Below, piece by piece: positions 9,210-15,322 of a stretch of 64,000 nucleotides of DNA. The stretch is from positions 704,001-768,000 of the forward strand of contig OZ253564.1 in the NCBI GenBank assembly GCA_965262915.1. Direction: 5' to 3'. Source of the DNA: Candidatus Spongiisociaceae bacterium (GTDB taxonomy: Bacteria > Actinomycetota > Acidimicrobiia > Spongiisociales > Spongiisociaceae). Positions within the stretch are counted from its first letter, which is position 1. Every line of letters begins with the position of its first letter. A model generated the notes under the pieces. That model saw nothing but the letters and a program-made list of their open reading frames with translations, made no database searches and was not told the DNA's origin. The position numbers were made by a program, and so were the translations under genes.

Positions 9210-9515
9210 CCGCGGCTGGGTATGCGTGGTCCGTTGCTCTAACGAATCCAGCTTCAGGCGGAACCCGGTCGCCCCTTCGATGGTGATGACAACGCCGAGC
9301 GACTCGAGCTCCACCAGGGATTCTCGACGAGCGTCTTGACGAGCGTCTTGAGTTGCGAGGGCCGTATCGGCCTCGGATTTGACTCGTTCGCCGTGTGCGC
9401 GGCGTTCAACCGGACGTACCTTTGGGTTGCCGCCACCGCCTCCCCGAGCAAATTCCCGATCCTCCACATACCCGTGTACGAGTAGATGAGGCAGGGGGCC
9501 AGCTCCGCCAGGCAC
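9210..9515 (-). pseudogene. N-terminal fragment of an S8 subtilase of the AAA-ATPase/subtilase (IetAS-like) pair
   Basis: LPHLLVHG...RPVERRAHGERV...RLKLDSLE lies directly after the AAA C-terminus; no catalytic domain remains. Confidence 0.55.
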
Positions 9516-9858
9516 CGTCAATACGTTGTCGCTCCTGTAAGGCTTCAACCAACGTAGCGGTAGCGACTCGCTCCTCCCCTGATAGGAGGGAACGCTTCGC
9601 TGCCGTCTCGGCCGCCTTCACCAGTTCGGCATGGCTCATTCCGTCATCGTCTTGCCGGTCCCCGGAGGGCCTTCGAGCAGTATCCGGTGCGGGGGGGTGT
9701 CCCTGTCTTGTTGTCAAGCCGCTTGGGGTAGGTTTTTGGGGGTTTCGGGTTGGGTCTGGGGTGGTTGGTAGGGGGTTTGGGTTTTGAGCATGGCCAGGAT
9801 GATGTTGGGGCGTCGGCGGGCTACGTAGATGACGGCTGCGTTGATGCTCCTATGATTG

Positions 9859-11139
9859 TCAAATCGATGATGGTGGGGCGGGTTGGTGGGTTCGGAGCCA
9901 GTTCTGGTATCGGGTAGCGAGCTGGTGGTTGTGGTCTCGGCCGCGTTCGATTTCTGAGATGCGGGCAGGGTGGGTTCGGAGAGCGTGGGCGGCTTGGGTG
10001 ATGGTGATGCCGCCTTGTTGGCGTAGGGTGCGCAGCTTCGCGCAGTTCGGGGTTGGTGGCGGGTTAGTGATGAGTCGGTATATTTCTCGGGCGATGTGCC
10101 TCTTGAGGCAGCGGATGATCTCTTTTCGGTTCTTTCCTTCGGTCTGGCGTCGGGTTACGTAGTCTTTGGTGCGGGCGTCGTGGCGCATCCGGGTGGTAGC
10201 GATGCGCCACAGCGCACAGTTTGCTTGCCGGTCGCCGCCCCGGTTGAGACGATGCCGCATGGTCTGTCCCGATGATGCCTGGACGGGGCTGGTGCCGCAC
10301 AGCGCCGCAAAGGACCGTTCCGATTTCATACGCCCGGGTTTGTCGCCGACTGCGACCAACAAAGCGGCGGCTGTGTCAGGACCGACACCTTCTGCCGCCA
10401 GCAGCGCCGGGTTCGCCTTCGCGCAGAGGCCTCTGATCTCGGTGTCGAGTTCGCCGATCTCTGTGTCGAGGGTTTGGTATCGGCGGGCCAGATGCCGCAG
10501 GGCACGCTTCGCGTAGGCGGTGGTGGTGTGGTCTGTGCCGGGTCGGAACCGGGCGCAAACTCGGACCTGGGCTTTGAGATTCATGCCCTTTAGCTGTTGT
10601 TTGACCTGCTCAGGGCCGGTAACCACCAGAGAGTGGATCTGGTTGGCGGCCTGGGTGCGGGCTTTGACCGCGGAGCGGCGGGCCGTCCTCAGCATCCGCA
10701 GGCACTCGACCGGACCGTCACCGGACTTGGGAACTGCGGTTGCTTGGCCCGAGGCGGCCGACCGAGTTGCTGCCTCGGCGTCGACGCTGTCGGTCTTGCC
10801 GCCCTTCTGGCGGCGTAGCTGGCGGTTCGGCCGGTTCACCTCCACCACCTCGATGTCGGCCTCGGTCAGATAGCGGGCCAGCCCGGCGCCGTAACTACCG
10901 GTTCCTTCTACCCCGACCCGGACCAGATGTCCCTGCGATCCCAGCCAGGCGACCAACCGCTGATACCCAGCTCCCTCCGCTGCGAACGACTCTGACCCCA
11001 ACAGGCGACCAGCAGTATCCACCACCGCCGCTACATGGGTGTCACGATGGGTATCAACCCCACCGAACACATCAACCCGATTCCCCGACACGACCACCAC
11101 CTCCTCGAGGGCGCTACTCTTGTTGCGGGGTTCCGGCAA
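9859..11139 (-). CDS. IS110 recombinase with an extra C-terminal XRE-like HTH (true start probably ~11095)
   Basis: GVDTH, VGVEGTG, KTDSVDA, CGTSPVQASSG and RLNRGGDRQAN motifs; tail LRTLRQQGGITITQAAHALRTHPARISEIERG. Confidence 0.92.
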   Translation of the reverse strand: MPEPRNKSSALEEVVVVSGNRVDVFGGVDTHRDTHVAAVVDTAGRLLGSESFAAEGAGYQRLVAWLGSQGHLVRVGVEGTGSYGAGLARYLTEADIEVVEVNRPNRQLRRQKGGKTDSVDAEAATRSAASGQATAVPKSGDGPVECLRMLRTARRSAVKARTQAANQIHSLVVTGPEQVKQQLKGMNLKAQVRVCARFRPGTDHTTTAYAKRALRHLARRYQTLDTEIGELDTEIRGLCAKANPALLAAEGVGPDTAAALLVAVGDKPGRMKSERSFAALCGTSPVQASSGQTMRHRLNRGGDRQANCALWRIATTRMRHDARTKDYVTRRQTEGKNRKEIIRCLKRHIAREIYRLITNPPPTPNCAKLRTLRQQGGITITQAAHALRTHPARISEIERGRDHNHQLATRYQNWLRTHQPAPPSSI

Positions 11140-11362
11140 AAAGCGGTGGACAGTACACTCACGGTGCTGGGAAGCTAAAGCTCCTATTAGGTCACATCCG
11201 CTCGGAGCCGAAACCCCGCTCTTCCCTGGACCGGGGGACAGGCCGACAGATCAACGCAAAGGCAACGCAAGCGCACGCCAGTGTTCTTTTGAGTCAGACC
11301 CGCCCCCCGCTCCAAGGGGCCACCCCATCTTCGCAGGTGGCCCCCAAAGGAAAGAGCCATTC
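11140..11362 (-). ncRNA. Putative bridge RNA of IS110-A
   Basis: Non-coding left end holds AAAGAACAC (11281-11289) and TGCGTTG (11252-11258), matching the target, and ATAGGAGC (11180-11187) and TGAGTG (11156-11161), matching the donor junction. Confidence 0.85.
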
Positions 11363-11994
11363 CATTATGAGTGTGTTCTTTGCCTTGGGCTCGTTTGCGC
11401 AGGTAGCAGGCGCGGGCGTCGGGGTCGTGTTGGCTGGCGACGAACGCGGCGACGAACATGGCGTTGCCGACGCGGTGGTTGCCGCCTCGTGCCCGTCGGG
11501 TGTTGCTGGTGCGGCCCGATTGCCAGTTGACGGGGGCTAGTCCGGCGTAGGCGGCTAGGCGTGCGGGGTTGGCGAAACGGTGCGGGTCGCCGATCTCAGC
11601 GAGGGTTCTCGCTCCGGTGCGGGGCCCGAACCCGCACATGCTGTTGAGGACTTTTCCCAGCGGATGCTCCAAGAACGCCGCCCCGATGTCGGCTTCGAGC
11701 CGCTCGCGGCGGTCGATGATCCGGTCCAAGTCGGCAGCGAGATCGCTGATAGTTTCGCCCCATGTCGCTTCGGCCACCACCGTGACGGTCTGGGCGGCTA
11801 GAGCGGCCCAGATCTCGTCGGTGAGCTTTGCGGCTGTCCGCTTGGAACGTTTCGCCACCAGCGTCCGGACGCGGGCTTTGCCAGCGGCGCGCAGCGCCGA
11901 AGGTGTGGGCCACCTCCCCAGTGCTGCTCGCAGCCCGGACACCGACACCAGCCTGTCGCCTACGGCACGTTCCAGAGCCGGGGACACGGCTAAG

Positions 11995-13810
11995 CCTGAA
12001 TCCACCGACGGCCTCCCCGGGGGGTGGTCCGGGGTGCGGTTGGTGGGAGGTTGAGGGGTCGGGGTTGGTTGGTTTTGGGGGGGTTCTAGGGGCGTGGTGG
12101 GTATGGTTTAGTGGCTAGATGGTGTTGAAAGCTGGTTGGGGTTGTTTCAGGCGTGTATGGCTGGGGTTTAGGTGGTTGGTTATGGTTGTGGGGGGTGTGT
12201 GAGGCCGGGTTAGCAGAGCTGTGGCAGCGTCCGGAGGTTAGTGAGGGTGGTTAGGTAGGTGCCGGCCCAGGGCCATCGGGCGGGTAGACGCAGCAGGCGG
12301 CGTCCGCCGTGGTTGACGACCCGTCCAGGGACCCCGAACAGTCGGGTACGGATGGTACGTCCACAGACCAGCCGCCCTCTTGGGCGGGTTCCGCCCAAGA
12401 GGGCTATATGGCGGTAGAGGTTATGCGCCAGGGCGGCGCAGATCAGCCAGGCCGCGTTAGCTGCGAAGACGCCGGAAGGTAGGTGGGCGAGTCCCCCTGA
12501 GTCTTTGAGGTCGCGGATGGCGAGTTCGCATGTGGCGTGGCGGCGGTGGTACCGGTCGGCTTCGACCGCGGGCACCTGGCTGTGCGCCTCCCCAGGGTTG
12601 TCACCGATCTCTACCGCCGACAGTTCGGCCACTTCGGTGTCTTGTTCGCCTCGGCGGGGTTGGTGACCGGTGTCGTCTTGTACGGCCCGGGGTTGGTGGT
12701 GCCGGTCGGCTTCTGCCGCGGCTAGGTCCAGGTTGGTGACCAAGGTGTGGTACCGCCAGTCGGGGAACAGCTGGGCTTGGGAACCGACCAAGCGGGTGCG
12801 GCGCACCACGAGACGGACCCGGCGCCGCTGCGACCGTTTCTTGGGGTTGGTCATCTCCAGGACGGTTTCCCCCACTTGTGCTTCGCCGCCCCGGGGATAG
12901 ACGATGGGAGCCCAGGCGTCTTCGTCGATATGTGTGATCTGTGCCCTGACCTTGGCATTCACCTGGGTGGTGATCGACCATCCCACCCCGAGTTTGTCGA
13001 GGGCGGCCAACATGGCATAGGACCAGAACCCCGAATCGGCCCGCACGCTCACCGGGCCCCTGGCCCCGGCCCGTCGCACACGCCGGATCGTCTCCCCGAC
13101 GAAATGGACCACACCCCGCTGCGACCCTCCTGCACGCAGACGGGCACCGACCACCTCCCCCGTATCGGCTCGGAACGCCAACAGCGGGTGATAACCCAGC
13201 ACTTTGGTGTAACCGAAAGCCGCGCCTTGTTTGGTCTTGCCCGACACTTCACAGATCGTCGAGTCCAAATCAACGGTCACAGGTCCCTTACCGGGACCCG
13301 CGCCCGCCCGCCACGCCCGGCCCAGCGTCAAGGTCAACACCTTCTCCAACTGGCGTACATGACCCCAGGTGAACGAACGCAGGAAGGTTCCCACAGTGGA
13401 CGGGGCCATCACCGCATGGGGCAACACCCGATCGGTGGAACCCGCCCGGAGCCGACCCACATGATCAATATGGGAGGCGCCCACCAGCATCGCAGCTACC
13501 AACGTGCACACCTTACGACCCGGGTTCGCGCCACCCACCCGGCCCTCCAGCCGCACCGTCCGATCCACCACATCTTCCAACCCCAAACGGTCCATCAGCG
13601 TCCCGGCCGCCAACAGCCCAGCGTCGGCCACCAACGACTCATCATCGAAAACCACCTCATAGCGGTCGATATTCTGCAATACTCCACTCACAGGAAGTGC
13701 CTCCTGACTCCGGGCCAATACACTTGTTTCGTATGGCTATTGTCCCAGATCAGAGGCACTTTCCGCGTCTATCCACCCCCAACCACAGGATATCTACCGG
13801 TGGATTCAGG
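11995..13810 (-). mobile_element. IS1380-family insertion sequence with 5-bp TSD
   Basis: IRs CCTGAATCCACCG / CGGTGGATTCAGG; CTAAG duplicated at 11990-11994 and 13811-13815. Confidence 0.93.
12210..13718 (-). CDS. IS1380-family DDE transposase
   Basis: VDLDST, GYHPL, VRADSGF, E.AIRDLK and FAANAAWL motifs. Confidence 0.92.
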   Translation of the reverse strand: MARSQEALPVSGVLQNIDRYEVVFDDESLVADAGLLAAGTLMDRLGLEDVVDRTVRLEGRVGGANPGRKVCTLVAAMLVGASHIDHVGRLRAGSTDRVLPHAVMAPSTVGTFLRSFTWGHVRQLEKVLTLTLGRAWRAGAGPGKGPVTVDLDSTICEVSGKTKQGAAFGYTKVLGYHPLLAFRADTGEVVGARLRAGGSQRGVVHFVGETIRRVRRAGARGPVSVRADSGFWSYAMLAALDKLGVGWSITTQVNAKVRAQITHIDEDAWAPIVYPRGGEAQVGETVLEMTNPKKRSQRRRVRLVVRRTRLVGSQAQLFPDWRYHTLVTNLDLAAAEADRHHQPRAVQDDTGHQPRRGEQDTEVAELSAVEIGDNPGEAHSQVPAVEADRYHRRHATCELAIRDLKDSGGLAHLPSGVFAANAAWLICAALAHNLYRHIALLGGTRPRGRLVCGRTIRTRLFGVPGRVVNHGGRRLLRLPARWPWAGTYLTTLTNLRTLPQLC

Positions 13811-14309
13811 CTAAGAGGGCGTCTCTCAGGCGGTTCGCGGCCCGGGTCGCGTTCCCAGCCAGGTCAGTGTCCCGCCCGTTGAGTATCCGTAGACGGGCCA
13901 GGAGCTCGTCGGTAATAGTGGTCCACGTGAGCCGGTCCGCGTTGCGCCACGCGTAGTCGGCCAGCACCCCGGCGTCTTTGGGGTCGGTCTTGGCCGCTCC
14001 TGCGTAAAGATCCGCGGCTCGGCGCATCGCCAGGCCGGTGACATAAGCCACCGGTATCTGACACTCGGCGGCCACCCCCAAGGCCAGCACAGCCGCAGAC
14101 GAGGTCGTGTCAACCACCAGCGCCGCGCTGCCATGAGATGCTGCGTCGTCGATCAACCGGCGGATAGCCCCCTCGTCGTTGGGAACCGGACGGGCGAACA
14201 AAGCCTCGCCTCGAGCCGACAGCGCACAGGCATAATGTTTCCCCTTGGCGATATCAACACCGACGAACACCTCAGGGGCGGGCTGGGGACAATCTTGCAT
14301 CAGGAGAAT

Positions 14310-14538
14310 CCTTTCCGGTTCGGACGCATGCGACGCTGCCCGCAGGTACCAACGCCTCAACCACTTTACGAACCACCAGCCCCACAATCTCGGTGCATGT
14401 CCCCCTCAGAGGTCGCAGGCACCCAACCACGGCGGGTGGCAACACCCCCCAGGCCATCTCGGTGACAGGGGGACAGAGCCCTGCCCGCCGCGGCGAGCAA
14501 CCAGCCCCGATACTCACACACCAGAGCTACCCAACAAG
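14310..14538 (-). ncRNA. Putative bridge RNA of IS110-B
   Basis: AGGGCTC (14476-14482) equals the flank at 14548-14554; GGGACA (14398-14403) and GTAAAG (14364-14369) match the two element ends. Confidence 0.6.
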
Positions 14539-15322
14539 GTAAAGGGGGAGCCCTTCTCCATTGGAGCGTGGCGTTGACGCTGCTCACCAATCACCTCTTC
14601 GAGCCGTGCTCTCGCAGTTCCGCGCCGACCGCCAGGTCTCGCATCGACCTCTCCGAGAACGATGCAACTACAAGACCGCCGAGCTCGCCCCGAGGTTGGG
14701 CAATGGGTGTCACGACAGATCCGGCGAGTTCCTTCCGCCCGGAGTCGACCAACAGCTTCATCTCAGCAGCGAACTTGTGATGTCCCCTACGGGCCGCCTT
14801 GGCCGTAACTTGGAGTACGATCGAGTAAAATGTCTCGTCGTCTCGCGAGCCGTGAGACTTCACAAATGCTTTGATGTGATCAGTTGACGCGGCCACGAGG
14901 GTCCTCCGTACTTCGACTATAGAGTAAGGGCCATCGCTGACACGCACTCCAATCGGTGTTCGTACGATAGATGCCCTCGTCCTGCTGGAGGCTCTGCTCC
15001 TTGAGAGGATCGGGTTGTGGGAAGGCCAAACAGGTATTCACCGTAGGTCCGCGGAGTATGACAGTGCGCGTGGTGGTCGAGTAGCGAAAGGGGTGCGGTT
15101 CGCAGTGGTTGACCAGTGACCCACCGAATCGGCCTCGGTGGCGGCGCTTTCTCCCTATTCGCGACATTCGCGATTCGCGACCCTCCAATGATCTTGTGGG
15201 ACGGACTGCCGGGTGCCCGGGCGGGATCGCCCGGCCGCACTTGTCGTTCTGACGGAACAACCCTGGGTTAGGAGGCTAGGTCGACCTGACCCGCCGTCCG
15301 CTTACCCGGCCGGTTCGTCGGG

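Follow-up and report, generated by a model that had tools for sequence, protein, structure and literature searches.

Among the systems described so far, the closest to the one considered here is the insertion sequence (IS) IS621 of E. coli, in which a recombinase with DEDD and Tnp domains acts with a guide RNA, the bridge RNA, that is encoded upstream of the recombinase gene and presents a target loop and a donor loop (PMC11208160). In IS621 the left guides have top-strand sense, the right guides are complementary to that strand, the pairings include the core, and a promoter is split across the junction of the excised circle (PMC11208160). In addition, once the top strands have been exchanged, bases beside the right guides, known as handshake guides, pair with the incoming partner (PMC11208158). 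Within the wider family, the long non-coding region is found upstream of the gene in the IS110 group and downstream of it in the IS1111 group (PMC11187229). To judge from the reference lists of PMC11208160 and PMC11187229, elements of both groups are known to use repeats and other mobile elements as safe, multi-copy landing sites, and titles in these lists indicate that repeats of Tn21 and attC sites have long been known as places where IS1111 elements insert. The element studied here, IS110-A, lies in a stretch of 64,000 nucleotides (nt), the window (contig OZ253564.1 of assembly GCA_965262915.1, positions 704,001-768,000; genome G000), where it interrupts the recombinase gene of another IS110-family element, IS110-B. 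It is most probable that this arrangement reflects RNA-guided targeting of one element by another, in which the bridge RNA of IS110-A specifies a 15-nt site in IS110-B, and in which IS110-B serves as a landing site and its loss is a by-product. The mechanism is already known, and what is new is this case.

IS110-A (9842..11373, minus strand) measures 1532 base pairs (bp) when the CA at each end is counted; alternatively, it can be described as 1530 bp with an additional 2-nt overlap that is shared. Its exact ends are common to three copies in the genome, at 99-100% identity. In the sense of the element, the left junction (11373/11374) reads GGCAAAGAACA followed by CACTCATAATGG and the right junction (9842/9841) reads ATAGGAGCATCA followed by ACGCAGCC, and the rebuilt target is AAAGAACACAACGCA. 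Positions 1-9 of this 15-mer are identical to the left target guide AAAGAACAC (11281..11289, minus strand), which makes up the 5' strand of the target-binding loop, and positions 9-15 are the reverse complement of the right target guide TGCGTTG (11252..11258, minus strand), which makes up the 3' strand, giving 15 matches out of 15. The original prediction had named these two strings together with the donor guides ATAGGAGC and TGAGTG and had claimed that the guides cover the target without mismatch; all four strings are present where it had placed them, with TGCGTTG being found twice, and the complete cover was confirmed. Its further claim, that the 15-mer encodes K-E-H-N-A of the IS110-B recombinase, is borne out by uninterrupted relatives of IS110-B, which were recovered from 4 of the 401 genomes of the order in a search for the 21-nt empty site with up to 2 mismatches. 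In these relatives the site reads GGCAAAGAACACAACGCC or close to it, inside IS110-type open reading frames (ORFs) containing ...RKRAQGKEHNAAV... (with ...GKEHNAAV... at this spot, or GKKHNAAV in the most distant one). The uninterrupted copy from the same genus is about 80-82% identical to IS110-B over its full length, and the reconstruction of the target is regarded as sound.

Public sequencing runs add to this picture. Sixteen runs contained at least half of the window's sampled words, and four runs, all made up of contigs, were aligned to it. Contigs of two of the four (X3 and X9) join 9841 directly to 11372, skipping 1530 bases and leaving two letters that fit either side; these empty-site joints are supporting evidence only, and parts without cover as well as the many internal skips inside the element, which likely stem from other family members at 90% likeness, were excluded as evidence. 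Junction-spanning contigs were present in three of the four runs (X1, X2 and X9), with only 28 flank letters in X9, and one of these runs may represent the sample of origin. The contigs of X9 show the IS110-B site in both occupied and empty form, and among the contigs listed for X3 there are the empty form and element-internal pieces; the site is therefore polymorphic, or IS110-B is present in several copies, in these two samples.

The genome holds three copies of IS110-A (the one in the window, 1730356-1731887 and 1292073-1293604), and two of them lie at the same nucleotide of two IS110-B-type genes, in the same orientation. The host flanks at these two loci differ at 79 of 769 aligned positions (10.3%) and the inserts at 14 of 1532 (0.9%; Fisher p 1.3e-25), and hence the two insertions are separate events or, at the least, much more recent than the divergence of the host copies. 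Identical junctions and a shared orientation would also result if IS110-A had inserted once and the composite IS110-B::IS110-A had later been duplicated, in which case recurrence would be no evidence for targeting. Such a history is extremely improbable, as besides the unequal divergence of flanks and inserts it would require gene conversion confined exactly to the insert; moreover, the empty forms in X3 and X9 point to occupied and empty copies that are interleaved, and the third copy of IS110-A, 2 bases off the copy in the window, sits at a different place, which indicates recent movement.

This third copy occupies unique DNA between genes, some 200 nt upstream of an AAA-ATPase-like gene. 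The site, GAAGAACACAACGAG, has 12 contiguous matches to the guides and 3 mismatches at outer positions. Two checks suggested with the original prediction, an inspection of the insertion sites of copies with the same guide and a count of the 15-mer, were carried out within this genome: two of the three copies are in IS110-B and one is in intergenic non-IS DNA, and both perfect sites are occupied, with no empty site at 0-1 mismatch, 6 empty sites with 2 mismatches and 41 with 3. Expressed as occupancy, these numbers correspond to 2/2 for perfect sites, 0/6 for sites with two mismatches, which are internal, and 1/42 for sites with three, the mismatches being distal in the occupied one. Occupancy follows guide complementarity, and IS110-B is the only perfect target in the genome. 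In a third IS110-B relative, which is 79% identical and lies just beyond the window, the site has the sequence AAACGCCACAACGCC and is not occupied. As a separate observation, a repeat of about 200 nt (95-98% identity), present at C1:1293880-1294090 and in no fewer than 14 further places, among them 698751-698952, sits 270 nt from the third IS110-A copy and is also inserted in the third IS110-B relative.

Targeting by IS110-A goes beyond chance because an A-rich 15-mer of this kind is expected only about 0.002 times in 5.06 Mb, as calculated from 64% G+C, and because guides covary with flanks; of these two arguments the covariation is the stronger. Many relatives of IS110-A, with 72-83% identity, are present in the genome. 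A DNA search of 41 relatives gave matches in 20, none above 81% identity outside G000, and the weak matches in the unpublished genome G028 underlie no claim made here. When 22 copies were aligned at their ends, the left-end scaffold appeared nearly invariant except for two short strands, 9 nt before UGGC and 6-7 nt before GAUCUGUCGG, which change with the left and right flanks, and in eight guide types the 9 columns of the left guide vary in step with the left flank. In a set composed of genome copies and three relatives from other genomes, cognate guide-flank pairs (n=9, eight guide types) match at 12-15 of 15 positions (mean 13.6), and non-cognate pairs (n=70) reach a mean of 5.9 and a maximum of 10; IS110-A in IS110-B is the sole 15/15 pair among the nine. 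A pattern scan detected 34 left ends of one and the same RNA scaffold with 10 distinct guide pairs in the genome (for instance at C1:274408, 541975, 642094, 962732, 2009260 and 4997541), almost all guides of which agree with their own flanks, and these left ends constitute a natural retargeting series within a single genome.

The commonest guide type, ACTGAAATC / TCATCG, accounts for 17 left ends, and 16 of the 17 copies are situated in a terminal repeat, between ...CCCACTGAAATC and ..GATGAGCC, a few tens of bases past the stop codon of a DDE_Tnp_ISL3 gene (3.4e-39) and co-oriented with it. The 12-mer CCCACTGAAATC of this ISL3 repeat occurs 32 times (for instance at L006:2950-3000), followed by an IS110 left end in 15 cases and empty in 17. 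The empty ISL3 ends read ATCCGA(T/A)GAGC in 16 of the 17 cases and ATCGATGAGCC in the remaining one, a form to which the guides would fit at a canonical 2-nt overlap. Copies of other subfamilies were identified shortly after an IS1182-like gene, next to an IS630-like gene and a short way upstream of an IS21-like gene. A further member, L017 (C1:3663631-3665083), carries an ISL3-aimed guide at a poorly matching site between IS1182-like and IS630-like genes, with CAAAGAACCC as left and ACCGCCGT as right flank, and represents either an off-target event or a rearrangement.

A similar choice of site has been attributed to another member of the family: in work from 2001 ascribed to Muller et al., IS1383 is said to integrate into the inverted repeats of IS1384 in Pseudomonas putida H. 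IS1384 belongs to the ISL3 family. IS110-A is like IS1383 in being an IS110-family element with a specific target in another insertion sequence, and the sisters in the ISL3 repeats look directly parallel, whereas IS110-A itself lands in a coding region, and in that of an element from its own family. With the IS1111 group it has in common the site-specific insertion in another mobile element, which disables the host element or rides on it. However, IS1111 elements have their guide RNA downstream of the gene, together with subterminal repeats (PMC11187229), and their targets are repeats or recombination sites, in contrast to the recombinase reading frame entered by IS110-A. IS621, for its part, targets repetitive extragenic palindromic (REP) sequences rather than a coding 15-mer in another IS110 gene. 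Natural reprogramming of seekRNAs and bridge RNAs, in which close relatives differ mainly in their guide strands and the sites differ accordingly, is described in PMC11187229 and PMC11208160, and natural guides have been binned against target motifs (PMC11208160). The series found here follows the same principle, but it is contained in one genome and includes a switch from an ISL3 terminal repeat to IS110 coding sequence: one of its members has moved from the former to the coding 15-mer of a distant IS110 relative. As bridge-RNA elements are under development as programmable recombinases, natural series of retargeted guides are of interest for showing which positions tolerate change and in what ways new targets are acquired.

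The alternative offered with the original prediction was a guide whose best genomic match happens to lie in IS110-B, the guide having evolved for another target, perhaps in another host or on a plasmid. It accords with one of the three copies being at a non-IS site, and with the absence of the guide pair and the junction from all other species-representative genomes scanned; of 29 family genomes searched, G000 alone has the IS110-B::IS110-A junction. Nevertheless, a 15/15 match is hard to reconcile with the expectation quoted above, the non-IS site is the poorer one, with its 12 contiguous bases, and IS110-B-like genes of related genera retain 14 of the 15 positions of the site. Given also the independent insertions, the lack of empty near-perfect sites and the habit of the sisters to settle in or beside other ISs, an incidental match is very unlikely.

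As to why IS110-B is chosen, another insertion sequence would offer a repeated, dispensable and horizontally travelling landing site, by the same logic that applies to elements aiming at REP sequences, attC sites or transposon terminal repeats, and the loss of IS110-B function would be a by-product. The original prediction had read the arrangement as element-on-element targeting that inactivates a competing recombinase. The targeting holds up, with two of three copies at the same base of diverged IS110-B genes, the full 15-nt match, no empty site with one mismatch or fewer and sisters in or beside other ISs, whereas the inactivation holds as a consequence only.

A stronger version, in which the guide is kept by selection since disruption of IS110-B benefits IS110-A or the host, finds some encouragement in the position of the site: it lies in coding sequence and not in a terminal repeat, insertion removes a conserved C-terminal helix (...GK/EHNAAV...ARRR...), and both IS110-B copies with the cognate site are occupied. 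On the other hand, no shared resource is evident, the two proteins being 34% identical over 86 amino acids and the ends being different, both struck IS110-B copies have other lesions, and the sister subfamilies land mostly in terminal, non-coding parts of other elements. A selected role in killing competitors is unlikely, and less likely than the known safe-haven habit of IS110 and IS1111 elements; the latter accounts for these data with no additional assumption. A broader proposal is that a coding site in another recombinase gene, in the same orientation, is adaptive in one of two ways: (i) a rival is removed, or (ii) transcription of the host element is used for bridge RNA and recombinase while the element's own promoter is split. 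The second possibility is suggested by the truncated IS110-B frame, which runs directly into the left end of IS110-A (ORF 11187-12005), and by the ISL3-aimed sisters, which lie just downstream of the ISL3 transposase gene and co-oriented with it. This proposal is unlikely; if it were true, guide evolution in this clade would be a record of conflict or parasitism between insertion sequences.

The safe-haven account of RNA-guided targeting has several points weighing against it. Only three copies and only two cognate sites are available, and, IS110-B being decayed, the insertions there may merely be survivors. The left and right guides of IS110-A overlap by 1 nt on the target, as opposed to the 2-nt core overlap of IS621, and, relative to the RNA alignment, the left guide has the shared C as its last base in IS110-A and three other guide types but stops one base before it in the ISL3-aimed type and another three. 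At the empty-site joints the sides are only 30 and 26 letters long, with a likeness threshold of 90%. RNA expression, circle formation and recombination would apply to IS110-A by analogy with IS621. Finally, the guide pair gave 6 matches elsewhere among species-representative genomes, all in unrelated phyla, none with the conserved scaffold around the guides and judged to be due to chance, and a longer guide pattern gave 0 matches in metagenome contigs. As for precedents, a full-text search of the literature, which extended neither to subscription journals nor to supplementary tables, where natural targets may be listed, retrieved no description of an IS110 element that targets the coding sequence of the recombinase of another. 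The present locus adds a documented case of an RNA-guided element inside the recombinase gene of another, which is relevant to the question of how insertion sequences share out, or compete for, the space of a crowded genome.

The presumed bridge RNA of IS110-A corresponds to the left non-coding end (11140..11373, minus strand), upstream of the gene as in IS621 (PMC11208160), and would comprise a 5' hairpin, a target-binding loop and a donor-binding loop. Its predicted fold of -108.4 kcal/mol (z -3.8; 0 of 200 shuffles equally stable) shows a 5' hairpin and then two stem-enclosed internal loops. In the consensus structure of 11 relatives, conserved stems enclose the hypervariable loop strands, and both variable strands fall in one internal loop, which a conserved stem of 14 bp closes at the base and a stem of 3 bp at the apex. 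No Rfam family was assigned to the left end by cmscan (E<=1, 9500-14800), the content of Rfam 15 as regards bridge-RNA models being unchecked. RNAalifold applied to whole left ends paired the first bases of the element with the right donor guide, and this pairing was set aside because the transcript should begin downstream of the -10 box.

The polarity of the guides agrees with the rules of IS621 (PMC11208160), the left guides being top-strand in sense and the right ones complementary, with the core included. Family alignment placed the working right target guide at 11252-11258, immediately 5' of GATCTGTCGG, which is conserved; extended by the next two bases, the guide corresponds to ATCAACGCA in DNA sense and matches the right junction, that is the last bases of the element plus the target, at 9/9 positions. 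The second TGCGTTG (11263..11269, minus strand) is located in the apical stem-loop of the target-binding loop and is a duplication absent from relatives. It is accompanied by a 4-nt insertion that relatives also lack, and the two together may be a trace of the origin of the new guide. In the donor-binding loop, the left guide ATAGGAGC (11180..11187, minus strand) has the same sequence as bases close to the element's right end (..CATAGGAGCATCA) and is kept with that end in all relatives; a variant, ATAGAAGC, in L034 changes both guide and end. The right donor guide TGAGTG with the following T (11155..11161, TGAGTG itself at 11156-11161; minus strand) has ACACTCA as its reverse complement, and this sequence matches the left junction at 7/7 positions. 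The right-guide strands of IS110-A match the last bases of the incoming partner, resembling the handshake arrangement of IS621 (PMC11208158).

A -10-like box, CATAAT (11364..11369, minus strand), is recognizable 4 nt inside the left end, and a -35 box, TTGACA (9857..9862, minus strand), near the right end. When the ends are joined (...TTGACAATCATAGGAGCATCACTCATAATGG...), they form TTGACA-17 nt-CATAAT, a predicted promoter that is present only on the circle; in the integrated element, no -35 box was located 17 nt upstream of CATAAT. IS621 has a circle-borne promoter of like arrangement, split across the junction in the same manner (PMC11208160). By extension from IS621 (PMC11208160, PMC11208158), the excised circle of IS110-A would form this promoter and express the RNA, the donor loop would hold the joined ends, and the DEDD/Ser recombinase would exchange strands at the 2-nt core. 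The bridge RNA from the left non-coding end would specify AAAGAACACAACGCA, which in this genome occurs only inside the 3' coding region of IS110-B-type genes.

The position of the core deserves separate mention. All three IS110-A copies show a 2-nt overlap (CA), and the empty-site joints also have 2. Three placements fit (CA/CA; AC on the target with TC on the donor; CA on the target with AT on the donor). As they all lead to one and the same target and circle junction, sequence alone does not fix the core. The original prediction of CA as the core is thus compatible with the data, yet it is one of three equal parses. None of them is CT, the core of IS621. The register varies by 1 nt between subfamilies, and a search for one register valid for all members, in which subfamilies, ISL3 empty ends and the IS621 rules were compared, found that no single register fits.

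The recombinase of IS110-A is encoded at 9859..11139 (minus strand), where the longest ORF has 426 codons from a TTG. Alignment with sister elements makes a GTG about 16 codons inside this ORF the likely start. In all three copies the ORF is intact, and their left ends are identical. Pfam searches identified an RuvC-like N-terminal domain (PF01548 DEDD_Tnp_IS110, 5.3e-26, amino acids 27-172) and a C-terminal Tnp domain (PF02371 Transposase_20, 9.5e-20, amino acids 246-328), and amino acids 26-359 match the NCBIfam model NF033542, 'IS110 family RNA-guided transposase', with 206.7 bits against a cut-off of 140. The protein shares this DEDD and Tnp organization with IS621 and aligns to its transposase structure 8wt6, with GVD, VEGTG and KTDSVDA opposite GID, IEATG and KTDTVDA, motifs that presumably provide the catalytic D, E, D and D. 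In addition, ASSGQTMR of IS110-A aligns with ESGSSVR of IS621 in the region of the catalytic serine, numbered S241 in PMC11208158. An XRE-type helix-turn-helix is found in the C-terminal part (amino acids 368-402, window positions 9859-10040, minus strand; HTH_31 5e-06, HTH_3 1.7e-05), an extra feature relative to IS621. This helix-turn-helix lies outside the span matched by the NCBIfam model and is kept across the sister subfamilies in the right-end DNA alignment. There are 234 nt from the left end to the ORF and only 17 nt past the stop codon, the arrangement typical of the IS110 group. IS110-A is probably an IS110-group element that is active or has been so recently.

IS110-B lies on the same strand as IS110-A and is now broken into three pieces. 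The middle coding piece, with the Tnp domain (11374..11993, minus strand; PF02371 4.6e-22; NF033542), ends in ...KRAQGKEH where IS110-A starts and is 82.5% identical to an uninterrupted relative in G002. The 3' piece (9690..9841, minus strand; lower boundary approximate) begins with NAAVIYVARRRPNIILAMLKTQ..., continues the protein as NAAVIYVARRR... and leads into the right end; it is 96.7% identical over 152 nt to copy 2 (BLAST) and also matches G002. The insertion of IS110-A cuts off the last 45 or so codons of the gene. The 5' piece, with the left end and the DEDD domain (13809..14547, minus strand; PF01548 4e-38), has an approximate upper boundary taken from the limits of homology to G002 and to other fragments. 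It is separated from the middle piece by an IS1380-family element (11994..13808, minus strand; NF033539 307.5 bits; Pfam DDE_Tnp_1_4), the boundaries of which were likewise taken from the limits of IS110-B homology, and the two pieces flanking this second insertion are contiguous in G002. Both occupied IS110-B copies are thus damaged further, one by the IS1380-family insertion and the other by a 5' truncation.

Downstream of IS110-B, a short ORF (9406-9717, minus strand) ends in ...AELVKAAETAAKRSLLSGEERVATATLVEALQERQ, and its C-terminus resembles, by eye, that of the AAA-ATPase-like gene beside the third IS110-A copy (L002:319-1296). A match to the Rfam family Ms_IGR-7, listed as 'Actinobacteria sRNA', was detected at 13692-13809 (plus strand), the only one given by the cmscan of 9500-14800, with 54.1 bits against a gathering score of 45. 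It coincides with the last 118 nt or so of the IS1380-family element, and the Rfam family may in fact describe an IS end.

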